From assembly GCF_057098645.1 (NCBI RefSeq), contig NZ_CM169472.1: a stretch of 64,000 nucleotides of DNA, one strand, 5' to 3'. Shown one piece after another: positions 37,192 through 57,934 of the stretch. Numbering within the stretch: the stretch's first letter is position 1; each line of letters begins with the position of its first letter. Below the pieces are notes generated by a model. It saw nothing but the letters and a program-made list of their open reading frames with translations, did no database searches and had not been told where the DNA came from. A program made the translations under genes and the position numbers.

Positions 37192-37286
37192 AAAAAAAAA
37201 GCCAGCACCCGGCTGGCTAAGTAATACTGGAAGCAATGTGAGCAATGTCGTGCTTTCAGGTTCTCCGCGAGGGTCTTCCTGATCGC
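37192..37286 (-). ncRNA. ryhB: RyhB small RNA (Fur-repressed)
   Basis: Minus strand reads GCGATCAGGAAGACCCTCGCGGAGAACCTGAAAGCACGACATTGCTCACATTGCTTCCAGTATTACTTAGCCAGCCGGGTGCTGGC followed by a U-run, i.e. the RyhB sequence with its intrinsic terminator. Confidence 0.95.
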
Positions 37287-37288
37287 GA

Positions 37289-37315
37289 GACAATAATAAT
37301 CATTCTCATTCGCAC
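37289..37315 (-). promoter_or_regulatory. Fur box in the ryhB promoter
   Basis: CAATAATAATCATTCTCATT directly upstream of the RyhB 5' end resembles the GATAATGATAATCATTATC Fur consensus. Confidence 0.7.
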
Positions 37316-37407
37316 TTGTCCAACACTTTTTGCAAAAAAATGCATTTGACTCGCATTTGAAAGTCAATGATGTTGAAAGGGACATTTACCCCAAAGAGGA
37401 CAAAGGA

Positions 37408-37896
37408 ATGAGTGAGATAGTAATACGCCACGCAGAAACACGGGATTACGAGGCCATTCGGCAGATTCACGCCCAGCCAGAGGTGTATTACAACACGCTA
37501 CAGGTGCCTCATCCTTCCGATCATATGTGGCAGGAGCGACTCGCCGATCGTCCCGGCATCAAACAGTTAGTTGCCTGTATTGATGGAACCGTCGTGGGTC
37601 ACCTCACCATTGACGTGCAACAGCGCCCACGCCGCAGTCATGTTGCCGATTTTGGTATCTGTGTCGACTCCCGTTGGAAGAATCGCGGCGTCGCCAGCGC
37701 CCTTATGCGAGAGATGATTGAAATGTGCGACAACTGGTTGCGGGTAGATCGTATCGAGCTAACGGTGTTCGTCGATAACGCGCCAGCAATTAAGGTCTAT
37801 AAAAAATACGGCTTTGAAATTGAAGGGACTGGTAAGAAGTACGCATTGCGTAATGGTGAATATGTCGATGCGTATTATATGGCGCGGGTGAAGTAA
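37408..37896 (+). CDS. yhhY: GNAT-family N-acetyltransferase
   Basis: Start placed at MSEIVIRHAETRDYEAI (162 aa) with AAAGAGGA upstream; GNAT fold. Confidence 0.9.
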   Translation: MSEIVIRHAETRDYEAIRQIHAQPEVYYNTLQVPHPSDHMWQERLADRPGIKQLVACIDGTVVGHLTIDVQQRPRRSHVADFGICVDSRWKNRGVASALMREMIEMCDNWLRVDRIELTVFVDNAPAIKVYKKYGFEIEGTGKKYALRNGEYVDAYYMARVK

Positions 37897-38878
37897 GATA
37901 GTGCCCTTTTTCTGAGATGGAAAAAGGGTGTCATTCAAAATCGGCATACCTTCCTTTAATGTATTTATTTTCCCAATAAATATATTGAGATTTACCTCAT
38001 AATTACTTCCTAAAGTGTAATATTTTATTTTTTAATATATACGCCTACAATTTCCTGGAGTAAATAAATAAAAATTAACAAGCATAATAGTGCCATTGAT
38101 AAAATAGCATGCCATAAAAGGACTTTTCAGGGATGAGTAATATTGTTTATCTGACAGTAACGGGAGAACAACAAGGAAGCATCTCCGCAGGTTGTGGGAC
38201 TACTTAATCTATAGGTAATCGCTGGCAGAGCGGGCATGAGAATGAAATATTTACATTCTCACTCGCAAATAGCATTACTAATACGGGGCTTGGTTCACAG
38301 TTACAGGGTATAACATTTTGTAAATTAATTGATAAAAGCACTCCATTACTTATTAATTCCATTAACAATAATGAGCAATTATTTATGGAATTTGACTTTT
38401 ATAGAATCAATAGATTTGGCAGATGGGAAAAGTATTATTATATACAACTAAGAGGCGCTTTTTTATCGGCTATTCATCATCAGATCATTGAAAATCAACT
38501 GGATACAGAAACAATAACTGTTAGTTATGAATTTATCCTCTGTCAACATCTTATCGCAAATACCGAGTTCAGCTATTTGGTTGGCACTCCCTGAAAATTA
38601 TAACCGTTTGTTTTTACCAAATTCAAAAAACCAAACAAATAATGGTTTCAAAACGTTAAACAGCAAAGCTGTTGGCAGGCTACTTGCTGCTGGTGGCGTA
38701 TACAATGGGAACATTGAAGGTTTCAGAGATACTGCGGAAAAACTGGGTGGAGATGCAATCAAAGGCTATGATCAAATACTAAATGAAAAAACAGCGGGCA
38801 TAGCGATAGCAACAGCATCTATTCTTTTAACAAAGCGTTCTAAAGTTGATACATATACAGAAATAAATAGTTACTTAG

Positions 38879-40074
<1,196 letters not shown>

Positions 40075-40511
40075 TTAGGCAAACTTAGAGGTCAACAAAA
40101 ACTTCTTGATGGCATAGACATAATAGAAATAAAATACATTAAGAGACCTTCAAAAGACTTAGCTAACTTACGAAAGGAGTTTAACAAAACTGTAAGAAAA
40201 AATTTTCTTATCAAACTTGCAAAAACCTCCGAAGCATCTGGAAGATTCAACGCCGAAGACCTTTTAAGAATGAGAAAGGGCTATGTTCCTCTAAATTATA
40301 ATGTTCACCATAAACTATCTCTAGATGATGGTGGTACTAATGATTTCGAAAATTTAGTATTAATCGAAAACGAACCATATCATAAAGTTTTTACTAACAT
40401 GCAATCACGAATAGCTAAGGGAATATTAGTAGGTGAAAGCAAAATCACTCCCTGGGCCATTCCATCTGGCTCAATTTATCCTCCCATGAAAAATATTATG
40501 GAACCCACAAA

Positions 40512-53966: not shown

Positions 53967-55076
53967 TCACTTGGCTGCCGTGGATGAACCGTCGGCGTGC
54001 CACTGGAAGACACCAAAATCAAATCCCTTAAGATCGCCTTTTTCATCCCAGTTCAGCGGCCCAATCACGGTGTTTGCACCGTTAGCTTTTAAATCTTTCA
54101 CCAGCGCCAGCGGCTCATCGCTGCCGGTACGCTCAAGGGCAGTTGCCAGAGATTGCACCGCCGCGTAGGTGATCCAGACATAAGGCCCGGACGGATCTTT
54201 CTTGTCTGCTTTCAGCGCATCAACGATGCCCTGGTTTGCCGGGTCCTGGTCATAGCGTTTTGGCATAGTGACCAACATGCCTTCGGCGGCTTCGCCAGCA
54301 ATGTTCGACAGCGACGCATTACCCACACCTTCCGGCCCCATAAACTGGGTTTTCAGGCCAACGGAACGGGCCTGGCGCAGCATCTGCCCCATTTCCGGGT
54401 AGTAACCGCCGTAGTAAACGAAGTCGATGTTTTCTTTTTTCAGGCGTGCGATCAGCGCGGAGAAATCTTTCTCGCCAGCGGTAATGCCGTCGAAGAAGAC
54501 GACATTGGCGTTAGCCGCTTTCAGCCCGTCCTGCACCGAACGCGCCAGCCCTTCGCCATACTGTTGTTTGTCGTGAATGATGGCGATGCGCTGGGGCTTC
54601 ACCGTCTCAAGAATGTATTTTGCCGCCGTTGGCCCCTGGGAAGAGTCCAGCCCGGCAGTACGCATAATGTGTTGATAACCGCGTTGGGTCAGCTCCGGGT
54701 TGGTCGCTCCCGGCGAGATCATCAGAATACCTTCGTCTTCATAGATATCTGACGCAGGCTGGGTAGAAGAAGAACACAGATGACCAATAACGTATTTAAT
54801 GCCGTCATTAACGATTTTGTTGGCGACCGCAACGGCTTGTTTCGGGTCGCAGGCGTCGTCATATTCCACGCCAACCAGCTTATCGCCTTTAATTCCCCCT
54901 TTGGCATTAATGTCTTTAATCGCCTGACGCGCGCCGTTAAATTCCATATCGCCCCACTGGGCAATCGGGCCGGACATCGCGCCGACAACGGCAACTTTAA
55001 TATCGTCGGCTAAAGCGGTGTGTGAAATTGCCAGTGCAATCATCCCTGCGATGATAGTTTTCGCATTCCGTTTCAT
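53967..55076 (-). CDS. livK: leucine-specific periplasmic binding protein
   Basis: Start placed at [16 protein letters not shown] (signal peptide; 369 aa) within the 387 aa ORF. Confidence 0.95.
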
Positions 55077-55500
55077 AGTCAAAAATCCCCATTCGTGATG
55101 TTGTGTTGCTTTGTTTTTATGTGTTAACAAATCAGACTGTTCTTTTTTTATACTGCACTGTTTTTGCCTGTCTGATTAAGGGTTTAGCGCAGTATTTTGT
55201 GATAATAGCGATTAAAGTCCCTATTTTTCAGTCGATTAAGAACAGATAATATTCTGAATTTATTGATAGATAAACAGAAAAAAGTGCCTTTGTCAGCATA
55301 AAATAACGGCATAAAGGGCGGAATAATTCACTACCATTCAGGGGATTATGCTGGACATTTTTCATTCTCTAATGTTTTAACTTTGTAATTATTGCTGAAA
55401 AAAAAATTAATCACCTGCCAAAAGAAATAAAAAAGAGAAAGCCTCCGATTAAATTATTTCGTTACACTGGTTCCACTTTTGTGATTTACACGGGTTCCCC

Positions 55501-55884
55501 ATGAAGCTGACCATCATTCGATTAGAAAACTTTAGCGACCAGGACCGGATTGACCTGCAAAAGATCTGGCCGGAGTATTCCCCTTCCTCTTTACAGGTTG
55601 ACGATAACCACCGCATCTACGCCGCGCGTTTTAACGAGCGCCTGCTCGCTGCCGTACGGGTAACCTTAAGCGGCACCGAGGGAGCACTGGATTCCCTGCG
55701 CGTGCGGGAAGTCACTCGACGTCGCGGTGTGGGGCAATATCTGCTGGAAGAGGTTTTGCGTAACAATCCTGGCGTTTCATGCTGGTGGATGGCGGATGCA
55801 GGCGTGGAAGATCGCGGTGTGATGACGGCGTTTATGCAGGCGCTGGGGTTTACGGCACAGCAGGGCGGCTGGGAGAAGCGTTAA
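55501..55884 (+). CDS. panZ: GNAT-fold PanD maturation/regulatory factor
   Basis: 127 aa ORF (MKLTIIRLENFSDQDRIDLQKIWPEY...) at the position of yhhK/panM/panZ. Confidence 0.85.
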   Translation: MKLTIIRLENFSDQDRIDLQKIWPEYSPSSLQVDDNHRIYAARFNERLLAAVRVTLSGTEGALDSLRVREVTRRRGVGQYLLEEVLRNNPGVSCWWMADAGVEDRGVMTAFMQALGFTAQQGGWEKR

Positions 55885-56408
55885 TCGCTCTGTGTAAAAA
55901 GCAGTTCAATGGATTTGGTTGGGAAAAATAACGCATTTTCGTTTTCCCCGACCAACGGGATAAAGCCCAGCGATTTATAAAACGTATGGGCTTTTTCATT
56001 CAGCGCCTCTACAAAAAGACCGTGAATACCTACTGCTAAAGAGGCTGACCAGACGACTTTCATGGCATGAGCAACCAGTGTTGCTCCCCATCCCTGCCCC
56101 TGTATTGAATGATCAATTGCCAGACGCCCAAGAGTGACGCTGGGAATATTTTTGTAGGGAATTTTTTTCTGTTTCGATTTCGAGGGCAATGCGGCTCGTT
56201 CAAAACAACTGCCGCATAATGTGTAATATCCCAGCACCTGACGTTCTGGAGTGTTGCGACAAAGGATATACGCTCGCAGAATTTTGTTGCGATGTTGACG
56301 AACGAGATGTGTCGTCAGAAAGAGATTTAACGCTTCCTCGCCGCAGTCGAATCGCTGTAGATCATAATCTGCATCATCGGTCAGAATCTCTATCGTCAGA
56401 TCATCCAT
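55881..56408 (-). CDS. ataT: GNAT-family acetyltransferase toxin, AtaT-like
   Basis: 175 aa ORF with the TLGRLAID...GQGWG signature of tRNA-acetylating GNAT toxins; 6 nt downstream of its antitoxin; stop overlaps the convergent panZ stop by 4 nt. The symbol is a recollection, not a search result. Confidence 0.6.
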   Translation of the reverse strand: MDDLTIEILTDDADYDLQRFDCGEEALNLFLTTHLVRQHRNKILRAYILCRNTPERQVLGYYTLCGSCFERAALPSKSKQKKIPYKNIPSVTLGRLAIDHSIQGQGWGATLVAHAMKVVWSASLAVGIHGLFVEALNEKAHTFYKSLGFIPLVGENENALFFPTKSIELLFTQSD

Positions 56409-56414
56409 AAATTA

Positions 56415-56681
56415 TTACATTCCCTGAAGACGTTTTACCGCACGTTTTAGCTTTTCACCTGGTGACGGTGGATTACTCAGCGCATCCATCACCCGCGTCC
56501 AGGATTCCTCATTGAGGATCACCCGCCGATGCTGTTCAATCACTTCCGCAGCCCGCTGCGAAGCGCTGTTCAACATAAATTGGCTGACGGACTGATTAGA
56601 TATCGCTGCCGCTTCCTCAATCATACTTTTGTCATCGTCAGTTAAACGCAGATCGATACGCTGCTTTTTAACAGCAGACAT
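56415..56681 (-). CDS. ataR: DUF1778/RHH-type antitoxin, AtaR-like
   Basis: 88 aa ORF immediately upstream of the GNAT toxin in the same orientation. Confidence 0.6.
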   Translation of the reverse strand: MSAVKKQRIDLRLTDDDKSMIEEAAAISNQSVSQFMLNSASQRAAEVIEQHRRVILNEESWTRVMDALSNPPSPGEKLKRAVKRLQGM

Positions 56682-56830
56682 GTGAACTCTCCTGCTCCGT
56701 ATAATATGTACGGCACATCACCGTACAATAAGCATATCCTGGATTGTTTAATCTTTCTACAACCATTTCGACAAACATAAAAAAACCCGATGGACGTTAA
56801 GCGCATCGGGCATTTTCATTTATCTATCCG

Positions 56831-57934
56831 TTACTTCGCATCGGTCGCCGTGCCGTTGGCGTGCCAGTCAAACACACCGAACTCAAAGCCTTTCAGATCG
56901 CCTTTCTCATCCCAGGTCAGCGGTCCCATTACGGTATCCACGGAGTTCGCTTTCAGGTATTTGGCGATTTCAGCCGGATCGTCAGACTGATTCAGGCCCG
57001 CCTGCAAAGATTGCAGCGCGGCGTAGGTGGTCCAAACGAATGCGCCGCTTGGGTCCTGTTTTTTCGCTTTGATCGCATCAACAATGGGTTTGTTTGCCGG
57101 AACCTGATCGTAGTTCTTCGGCTTGGTCACCAGCAGCCCTTCCGCTGACTCGCCCGCAATGTTAGACAGCGAGACGTTAGCCACGCCTTCCGGCCCCATA
57201 AACTGAGTTTTCAACCCTGCCGCGCGTGCCTGACGCAGGATTTGCCCCATTTCCGGGTGATAACCGCCGTAGTAAACGAAGTCGATATTCTCTTTTTTCA
57301 GACGCGCCACCAGCGTTGAGAAATCTTTTTCCCCGGCGGTGATGCCATCAAAGAACACCACGTTAGCATTGCCTTTCTTCAGGCCGTCCTGCACCGCACG
57401 CGCCAGACCTTCGCCGTATTGCTGTTTGTCGTGAACGATAGCAATACGCTGCGGTTTCACTTTCTCAAGAATATATTTCGCCGCCGTCGGCCCCTGGTCG
57501 GAGTCCAGGCCGGTGGTGCGCAGGATCAGCTGATAGCCACGGGCGGTCAGCTCCGGCGCGGTTGCCGCTGGGGTGATCATTAAAATGCCTTCGTCTTCGT
57601 AGATGTCAGACGCAGGCTGCGTTGATGAAGAACAGAGGTGACCAATCACATATTTAATGCCGTCGTTAACGACTTTGTTCGCCACCGCAACCGCCTGTTT
57701 CGGGTCACAGGCATCGTCATATTTTACGATTTGCAGTTTGTTGCCTTTAATGCCGCCTTTAGCGTTGATATCCGCAACCGCCTGCTCTGCGCCGGTAAAC
57801 TCCTGGTCACCGTACTGCGCAACCGGACCGGACATTGCGCCCACGACCGCGACTTTAATATCTTCTGCCAGAGCCATATTGCTGAATGCCAGCGCGATAC
57901 ATCCTGCCAGTAACGCTTTACCCTTTATGTTCAT
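56831..57934 (-). CDS. livJ: Leu/Ile/Val periplasmic binding protein
   Basis: Start placed at [16 protein letters not shown] (367 aa) within the 386 aa ORF; paralogous to livK. Confidence 0.95.

Follow-up and report, generated by a model that had tools for sequence, protein, structure and literature searches.

Organization of the locus

The window analysed here is a stretch of 64,000 nucleotides (nt) from NCBI RefSeq assembly GCF_057098645.1, contig NZ_CM169472.1. Between panZ (also named panM) and livJ it carries two genes on the minus strand (Table 1). We are highly confident that they constitute the chromosomal ataR-ataT operon, a type II toxin-antitoxin system, in a minor allele of the characterised system of Escherichia coli O157:H7. 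A preliminary description of the window had given the lengths, coordinates and strand of both open reading frames (ORFs), and all were reproduced exactly by a mechanical ORF list, in which the translation of the toxin ORF contains TLGRLAID...QGQGWG. The 6-nt separation of the two genes and the 4-nt overlap of the toxin stop with the stop of convergent panZ, both part of that description, were also read in the sequence. The spacer is TAATTT in three of the E. coli alleles compared and TACTTT in the fourth. At the other end of ataT, the TAA of panZ occupies 55882-55884 and the TAA of ataT is the complement of 55881-55883, leaving 4 nt common to both ORFs. The same overlap is annotated in EDL933, EH53, WGS1363 and 95-3192.

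Identity of the pair with AtaR-AtaT

The similarity to GNAT toxins that had been proposed from the letters was borne out by hidden Markov model (HMM) search, in which the toxin matched the Pfam GNAT domains PF13508 and PF00583, both above their cut-offs. The antitoxin matched PF08681 (TacA1) at E 1.3e-25. Among solved structures, the toxin aligned over residues 1-175 with the AtaT chains 6GTS_A, 6AJM_A and 7CHD_A (E 1e-114 to 3e-116), followed by KacT (E 1e-73), and the antitoxin aligned over residues 1-88 with AtaR 6AJM_C (E 2.4e-51), with KacA at E 7e-38. The weakest PDB match of the toxin was 7BYY_A (E 6.5e-4), assigned here to ItaT of ItaR-ItaT. The toxin is identical to EDL933 AtaT at 172 of 175 positions, the changes being R100H, L102I and N117K. 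The antitoxin is identical at 87 of 88 positions to EDL933 AtaR, with A82V as the sole change, and likewise at 87 of 88 to the AtaR of PDB 6AJM_C/6GTO/6GTS. What had been noted as a resemblance to AtaR and AtaT is near-identity, and the RefSeq names agree. Over a 1.5-kb segment the window shows 100% identity with E. coli 95-3192, a strain in which the genes bear the names ataT and ataR, as they do in EDL933.

The family and the position of the genes are consistent with this assignment. The antitoxin is of the DUF1778/TacA1 family, with a conserved segment KKQRIDLRL that carries R8, D10 and R12 of the beta-strand in the N-terminal ribbon-helix-helix, and its gene lies directly upstream of the toxin gene. 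R8 and R12 of KacA are essential for DNA binding (PMC6698736). The O157:H7 system (EDL933; Sakai ECs4308-ECs4307; PDB 6AJM, 6AJN, 6GTO-6GTS, 7CHD) consists of the same genes at the same panM-livJ locus. EDL933 has the order panM, ataT, ataR, livJ with equal overlaps, and this placement with its overlaps also occurs in 95-3192, EH53 and WGS1363. EDL933 also agrees with the window in the 6 nt between the two genes, in the TTAA shared with panM, in the operator arms and in the type of livJ terminator. At position 117, the window toxin has the family consensus Lys whereas O157 AtaT has Asn. AtaRT is already known: it has been studied biochemically and structurally and is named by genome annotation pipelines.

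Comparison with related systems sets the pair apart from each of them. KacA-KacT of Klebsiella pneumoniae (PDB 5XUN, 5ZGN) shares the family and architecture, with KacT at about 68% identity to the window toxin, KacA also of 88 amino acids (aa), a hexamer on a palindromic operator and conditional cooperativity. The kacAT genes, however, lie elsewhere in the chromosome, downstream of a CusS-like two-component system, and do not adjoin panZ. AtaR2-AtaT2 of O157:H7 (ECs4261-ECs4262; PDB 7F37) and TacA-TacT of Salmonella likewise pair a GNAT toxin with a DUF1778 antitoxin and act by acetylation of aminoacyl-tRNA. AtaT2 is distant from AtaT (phmmer E 4e-22; 29.2% identity in PMC7470980), its reported specificity is for Gly-tRNA only, and its genes overlap rather than lying 6 nt apart. 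ItaR-ItaT of E. coli HS also has a GNAT toxin that acetylates aminoacyl-tRNA, but the targets reported in PMC7367177 are Ile-tRNA and related species, unlike the AtaT set.

According to PMC7470980, O157:H7 Sakai has two GNAT modules, ataRT (ECs4308-4307) and ataRT2 (ECs4261-4262). The window also has two. The pair studied here had been called the second, and a distant paralogous pair does precede it, between malT and rtcA, with a toxin nearly identical to PDB 7F37_B (E 1e-105). This first pair presumably corresponds to AtaR2-AtaT2 of O157:H7, the toxin reported to be specific for Gly-tRNA. RefSeq gives its genes generic names only.

Table 1. Coordinates of the genes and sequence elements considered in this study
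Feature	Position	Strand	Description
ataR	56415..56681	-	88 aa, ATG start; ribbon-helix-helix (RHH) antitoxin and autorepressor, DUF1778/TacA1 family
ataT	55881..56408	-	175 aa, ATG start; GNAT acetyltransferase toxin, predicted to N-acetylate aminoacyl-tRNA
ataR stop-ataT ATG spacer	56409..56414	-	6 nt, TAATTT in gene sense; pair forms a bicistronic operon
AtaR codon 82 (A82V)	56436-56438	-	changed codon
Shine-Dalgarno AGGAG	56689..56693	-	7 nt before ataR ATG
Putative operator palindrome	56707..56727	.	TGTACGG-N7-CCGTACA; putative AtaR4-AtaT2 site
Predicted sigma-70 ataRT promoter	56731..56759	-	-35 TAGAAA (56754-56759), 17-nt spacer, -10 TATGCT (56731-56736)
Candidate panZ intrinsic terminator	55962..55999	+	hairpin AAAGCCCA-N17-TGGGCTTT, then TTTTTCATT; within ataT codons 138-149
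panZ/ataT common stop region	55881..55884	both	TTAA
panZ (panM)	55501..55884	+	127 aa; acetyl-CoA-sensing activator/regulator of PanD
livJ intrinsic terminator	56778..56818	-	hairpin and T7 run, directly upstream of the ataRT promoter
livJ	from 56831	-	from the ORF list
K-12 DH10B panM-livJ spacer	785-971 of extracted locus		187 bp; compared with window 55888-56830
First GNAT/DUF1778 pair of the window	7892-8709	+	between malT and rtcA

The neighbour panZ stands outside the toxin-antitoxin module. Its product has a GNAT fold, as had been noted (Pfam PF12568, 'Acetyltransferase (GNAT) domain, PanZ', E 2.7e-57; NCBIfam NF033213, matur_PanM, E 1.2e-56), and two GNAT genes are thus placed tail to tail. 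In a BLASTP comparison of AtaT with PanZ (E 4.9), no sequence similarity beyond the common fold was found, and the tail-to-tail pair is therefore not a duplication. A search of the PADLOC-DB anti-phage defence models at E <=0.001 found no family matching either AtaT or AtaR.

Predicted promoter and operator

The predicted promoter upstream of ataR is in register with TTGAAA/TTGATA-N17-TACACT/TAAACT of the Salmonella, Pluralibacter and metagenome loci, and TAGAAA-N17-TATGCT would accordingly represent the ataRT promoter. The AGGAG ribosome binding sequence is kept in E. coli, other Escherichia, Salmonella enterica subsp. salamae (S. salamae) and Pluralibacter. Between these two elements lies a palindrome, which begins 3 nt after the -10-like hexamer and ends 25 nt before the ataR ATG. 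Four E. coli alleles and five loci from other Escherichia, Salmonella, Pluralibacter and a metagenome share both of its arms without change, while the 7 nt between the arms vary in nearly every lineage. Invariant arms around a variable spacer form a clear phylogenetic footprint of a site that a dimer of dimers would bind. It is known that the KacAT and AtaRT complexes bind one promoter palindrome that spans the transcription start (PMC6698736), and published structures of the hexamer on its operator support this binding mode (PMC6698736; PMC8138530). By analogy with kacAT, the palindrome in the window would span the transcription start of ataRT.

The palindrome of EDL933 has 9-bp arms, ATGTACGGT-N5-ACCGTACAT, as does that of Salmonella, whereas the arms in the window are 7 bp, with the outer and inner positions changed. 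Four of the five inter-arm positions also differ between the two alleles, and the strength of repression could differ between them. Owing to a T-for-A change, the hexamer overlapping the left arm is TTGTAC in the window. We also considered, as part of the operator, a third GTACGG half-site (TATACGG, close to 56700), and rejected it, as it is not conserved outside E. coli.

The livJ terminator upstream of the promoter is an inverted repeat with a predicted fold of -17.0 kcal/mol followed by a T-run. It is kept in other E. coli alleles and is unlike the livJ terminator of K-12. A search of Rfam over 55000-57300 with E up to 1 returned only a chance snoRNA match far below threshold.

A conserved hairpin within ataT

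The intergenic distance between panZ and ataT is zero, and therefore at least one of the two mRNAs ends inside the other gene. A consensus scan for promoters and terminators has a loop limit that misses the evident livJ terminator, and we used a looser scan for which that terminator served as the positive control. The best terminator-like site past the panZ stop, in the window and in 5/5 loci of other taxa, was a hairpin inside ataT. The stem-loop (55962-55994) lies 78-110 nt beyond the panZ stop on the panZ-sense strand. Its predicted fold is -14.6 kcal/mol (z -2.48), a value matched or exceeded by 4 of 200 shuffles, and under RNAalifold the stem persisted in 7/7 sequences, one inner pair being compensatory. 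The two arms coincide with ataT codons E138-K139-A140 (GAA AAA GCC) and L147-G148-F149 (CTG GGC TTT). In four divergent panZ-linked lineages, an identical codon was used in 22 of the 106 conserved columns of degenerate residues, and in all six of those within the arms (hypergeometric p 4e-5; 4e-5 also under a residue-specific null). No comparable hotspot of synonymous-site conservation was found in panZ or ataR. Taken together, these comparisons suggest that the hairpin is probably the intrinsic terminator of panZ.

It is possible, although we consider it unlikely, that the hairpin is not a panZ terminator at all, and that it acts on the ataT-sense mRNA or owes its conservation to codon preference. 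The arms are self-complementary and fold equally on the ataT-sense strand, where, in S. salamae, the hairpin is followed by TTTATTTCTTTA. On that strand it might affect mRNA stability, cause a pause in translation, or bring about partial termination that lowers the toxin:antitoxin ratio. Enteric bacteria prefer the codons GAA, AAA and CTG, which favours a by-product of codon preference, and a cruder permutation test, asking for two stretches of three identical codons each, gave only p = 0.027. The loop, at 10-17 nt, is long for a canonical intrinsic terminator and also counts against the panZ terminator. On the other hand, GCC, GGC and AAA are fixed in the arms, whereas outside them a single codon is conserved in none of the 7 Ala, 10 Gly and 4 Lys columns of the four lineages. 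In every taxon the panZ-sense strand has the strongest T-run. The stem is broken in KacT and in the copies of Enterobacter and Siccibacter, none of which adjoins panZ, by codons that differ from those conserved in the panZ-linked copies but encode the same amino acids. A terminator for panZ is the reading that we retain.

Activity and substrates

The mechanism has been established for the O157 proteins. The AtaT homodimer, which is the active form, binds the acceptor stem and 3' end of a charged tRNA and transfers the acetyl group of acetyl-CoA to the amino acid's alpha-amino group (PMC7595197). Its substrates are Met-tRNAfMet and the Gly-, Trp-, Tyr- and Phe-tRNAs, and the result is a global halt of translation (PMC7595197). 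The preliminary description, in which the toxin acetylates initiator Met-tRNA, had that substrate right, but it is not the sole one, as several aminoacyl-tRNAs are acetylated (PMC7595197). Expressed alone, the O157 toxin arrests growth and the cognate antitoxin neutralises it (PMC7595197; PMC7470980).

In the mutagenesis of Yashiro et al. (PMC7595197), toxicity of AtaT was lowered or abolished by F30A, H34A/R37A/R40A, R71A, S76A, S78A, K77A/K79A/K81A/K82A, Y85A, R95A, G108D and Y144F. All of these residues are intact in the window AtaT, and so are the contact residues N41, P84 and K165. The residues that meet the acceptor stem and 3' end of the tRNA (H34/R37/R40 in alpha1, S76-K82 in alpha3, Y85 and R95) are all kept. 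The acetyl-CoA loop, of the pattern Q/R-x-x-G-x-G/A and here Q103-G-Q-G106-W-G108, and the catalytic Y144 are present. With both ORFs, the Shine-Dalgarno sequence, the palindrome and the promoter-like site also in place, the window retains the parts that the mechanism needs. By extension from the O157 proteins, AtaT of this allele would work as a homodimeric GNAT enzyme, acetylating aminoacyl-tRNA and so blocking translation. The C-terminal region of AtaR, the RHH protein, would wrap AtaT in a 1:1 binding stoichiometry, fill the acetyl-CoA site and prevent dimerisation. An AtaT-AtaR4-AtaT hexamer on the promoter palindrome would repress the operon, and an excess of toxin would lift the repression.

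A different activity has been reported in a pathogen, and the relevant function of AtaT there could be the acetylation of protein lysines that promotes virulence rather than tRNA-directed growth arrest. The reported target is K206 of EspB, a translocon protein of type III secretion (PMC7957018). In enterohaemorrhagic E. coli (EHEC), deletion of ataT lowered adhesion and colon inflammation, and AtaT was found to acetylate and stabilise EspB at K206 (PMC7957018). This comes from one paper and is compatible with the tRNA activity, whereas tRNA acetylation is backed by in vitro assays, in vivo liquid chromatography-mass spectrometry (LC/MS) and a co-crystal with acetyl-Met-tRNA (PMC7595197). Strains and taxa in which EspB is not known also keep the module at the locus, among them E. 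coli isolates of urinary and canine origin, Pluralibacter and S. salamae. A role tied to EspB therefore cannot explain its conservation in non-EHEC strains and other genera, and we regard lysine acetylation as the main activity as quite improbable. Deletion of ataT would, in addition, take away the candidate panZ terminator and could change the formation of the panZ 3' end, a possible confound in the published virulence work, which used such a deletion, and a point to consider in any deletion of the gene. We continue to favour growth arrest through tRNA acetylation.

History of the livJ/panZ gap

The preliminary description had the module inserted between two genes that are neighbours in K-12. 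The second half of this statement is accurate, with panM and livJ 187 bp apart in DH10B. To follow the first half, we examined the contigs encoding the AtaT relatives of 70-94% identity from a protein search, which NCBI names E. ruysiae, 'MULTISPECIES Escherichia', S. enterica subsp. salamae and Pluralibacter sp., together with a locus of a metagenomic enterobacterium. The order livJ-antitoxin-toxin-panZ(convergent)-livK was found in all of them. In every one the toxin and panZ overlap by 4 nt, as TTAA, CTAG or CTAA, and the overlap is kept despite a 9-nt in-frame indel in the toxin tail. Between the window and S. salamae, protein identity is 94% for LivJ, 91% for LivK, 84% for PanZ, 80% for AtaR and 73% for AtaT. 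With the same order and junction in other Escherichia, S. salamae and Pluralibacter, an insertion is doubtful and probably has the direction wrong. Since the same livJ-ataR-ataT-panZ arrangement is shared by several genera, it is likely old, and the simplest reading is that it predates the Escherichia-Salmonella split and was lost in many lineages. Exchange through the conserved flanks is an alternative to ancestral residence, because the AtaT tree is not fully congruent and the G+C content of the module is low.

K-12 is homologous to the window as far as 3 nt beyond the panZ stop (55887) and again from the livJ stop (56831) on. The intervening stretch is 184 bp in K-12, containing repetitive extragenic palindromic (REP) sequence, and 943 bp in the window, where it holds ataT and ataR with their control region as well as another livJ terminator. 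In strains that lack ataRT, the spacer measures 187-198 bp and includes two REP-like palindromes (GCCTGATGCGCTACGCTTATCAGGC and GCCGGATAAGGCGTTTACGCCGCATCCGGC) and a livJ terminator unlike that of the window. No remnant of ataRT was found in the K-12 spacer (best blastn-short E 0.5). As the K-12 spacer is different in sequence and free of such a remnant, the module and the REP spacer look like old alternative haplotypes of one gap. A supposed third state of the locus in an O111:H- strain proved to be an empty site with a 198-bp spacer. A link between the module and the C127R difference in panZ was rejected, since R127 is also found in an O111 strain that has no module.

By the 1.5-kb query, the module is present in 1612 of 5426 complete E. 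coli genomes (30%, with at least 80% of the query covered). All 5475 matches of that query were chromosomal, and the AtaT lineage proper was never found on a plasmid, where only relatives of at most 69% identity occur. The relatives of 61-69% identity are mobile, and those of 61-68% are sited elsewhere: KacT by a CusS-like system, the Enterobacter copy by an integrase and the Siccibacter copy at another site. Nearly 4000 plasmid records carry a relative of the AtaT/KacT clade, of which 2227 are conjugative plasmids. An Enterobacter ludwigii pair (3728-4531 of the contig extract) has lambdoid phage genes (RecT, NinX) on one side and a phage integrase on the other.

It could still be argued that O157-like strains acquired the module recently, as a small horizontally transferred island relative to K-12, which has no module. 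The G+C content of ataT (45.3%) and ataR (49.1%) is below that of panZ, livJ and livK (54-57%). The mobility of the relatives of 61-69% identity, with many on plasmids, a phage integrase next to the Enterobacter copy and unrelated sites in Klebsiella and Siccibacter, points the same way. The AtaT and AtaR trees are partly incongruent with the flanks, AtaT being 73% identical between E. coli and S. salamae and 83% between S. salamae and Pluralibacter. We nevertheless hold recent acquisition to be very unlikely. The gene order through livK and the 4-nt overlap are shared with other Escherichia, S. salamae, Pluralibacter and the metagenomic enterobacterium, and the 30% of genomes that carry the module always have it at the same site. 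Within E. coli the module diverges alongside panZ, with 16 synonymous codon changes against 13. Its borders show no integrase, repeats or target duplication, and the 187-bp K-12 spacer, as described above, shows no trace of it. Old residence is the interpretation carried forward here.

Elsewhere in the window, around 37200-40100, about 1.2 kb is extra relative to the otherwise collinear 95-3192 in the yhhY-tssD (yhhZ)-yrhA region. Strain 95-3192 has a frameshifted tssD pseudogene in the yhhY-yrhA region, and two 1-bp offsets against the window also occur. The window thus belongs to a close relative of 95-3192 and is not part of that assembly.

Integrity of this allele

The module is very likely a working one, toxic and neutralised, judging from the 98-99% identity to the O157 proteins. 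The ataT gene differs from the WGS1363 allele by 16 synonymous and 6 non-synonymous codon changes (13 and 1 for panZ), and this mostly synonymous change among E. coli alleles indicates purifying selection on ataT. At position 102, Ile occurs in 55 of 120 family representatives in the alignment, and Lys at position 117 in 94 of 120, which makes both residues ordinary; Asn at 117 is peculiar to O157.

None of the results contradicts the identification of the locus. Several observations weigh against its assignment as a functional ataR-ataT operon. No NCBIfam HMM matched AtaT or AtaR at its cut-off. The consensus scan of 55300-57000 for promoters and terminators found nothing on either strand, and the predicted ataRT promoter went unreported because only 4+4 of its 12 positions match. 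The palindrome as the putative AtaR-AtaT operator rests on comparative data and the KacAT paper. Two of the substitutions are rare. Position 100 of AtaT is Lys or Arg in 100 of 120 representatives and His in two, with Gln, Leu, Thr and Val in others, and it lies three residues ahead of the acetyl-CoA loop. All nine other homologues compared, which range from E. coli to Klebsiella and Siccibacter, have Ala at position 82 of AtaR. Helix alphaD of KacA (residues 75-86) covers the site for acetyl-CoA on the toxin, and its L78 and L85 make the hydrophobic contacts. Helix periodicity, together with KacA L78/L85, would place A82 of AtaR on the toxin-facing side of alphaD. Either R100H or A82V could alter activity or neutralisation.

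R100H is unusual yet appears to be at a tolerant site, because Gln, Leu, Thr and Val occur there in relatives. The two rare changes, AtaT R100H and AtaR A82V, may be a co-adapted pair. Natural attenuation is suggested in the lineage. The AtaT of Escherichia other than E. coli (NCBI names E. ruysiae, E. marmotae and 'MULTISPECIES Escherichia'; ORF 3001-3513 in the extracted loci) has 170 aa and misses five residues of 80-85 (KKIPY), including K81/K82 and Y85, which were necessary for toxicity in the published mutagenesis. These toxins may be attenuated while their antitoxin is intact. That the window allele is itself an attenuated or inactive, decaying remnant, with R100H weakening the toxin or A82V altering neutralisation, draws on the rarity of both changes and on this precedent, in which the lost Y85 is a residue whose replacement by Ala abolishes toxicity; it is nonetheless highly improbable, with both ORFs at full length, the experimentally important residues all present, both changes conservative, Leu at position 100 in the Salmonella and Pluralibacter copies, the operator, Shine-Dalgarno sequence and gene spacing intact, and the haplotype maintained in 49 genomes at >=99% identity over the 1.5-kb segment.

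Convergent transcription and significance

No terminator-like site in the ataT sense was found inside panZ, the first weak candidate being at 55351-55309, beyond that gene. Transcripts of ataRT may thus run antisense through panZ unless Rho stops them, and convergent transcription, as the preliminary description suggested, could couple the expression of panZ and ataT. On the other side, the hairpin would confine the overlap of the panZ transcript to about 110 nt, limiting it without abolishing it. We consider it quite improbable that panZ and ataRT form a co-evolved convergent unit with regulatory antisense overlap and are not chance neighbours. The idea draws on the 4-nt stop overlap, kept across at least three genera, and on the hairpin, apparently held by selection at synonymous sites. 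Among the papers searched, none mentions AtaT together with panM, yhhK or livJ. If the idea were true, each panZ mRNA would end in a 3' tail, about 110 nt long and antisense to the last part of ataT, and de-repressed ataRT transcription would run antisense through panZ. The expression of PanZ, an acetyl-CoA sensor that gates CoA synthesis, would then be linked to the expression of a toxin that depends on acetyl-CoA.

As a discovery the locus matters little, AtaRT being already characterised and annotated. The additions made here are modest: an old and fixed residence, a conserved stop overlap, an operator footprint, an embedded hairpin, and the rare substitutions R100H and A82V. The idea of a strain-specific insertion is corrected. 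On the simplest reading, ataRT is an old occupant of the gap in several enterobacterial genera, and K-12-like strains have lost it or have a REP spacer in its place. For a type II toxin-antitoxin pair, the position in the livJ/panZ gap would be unusually stable.

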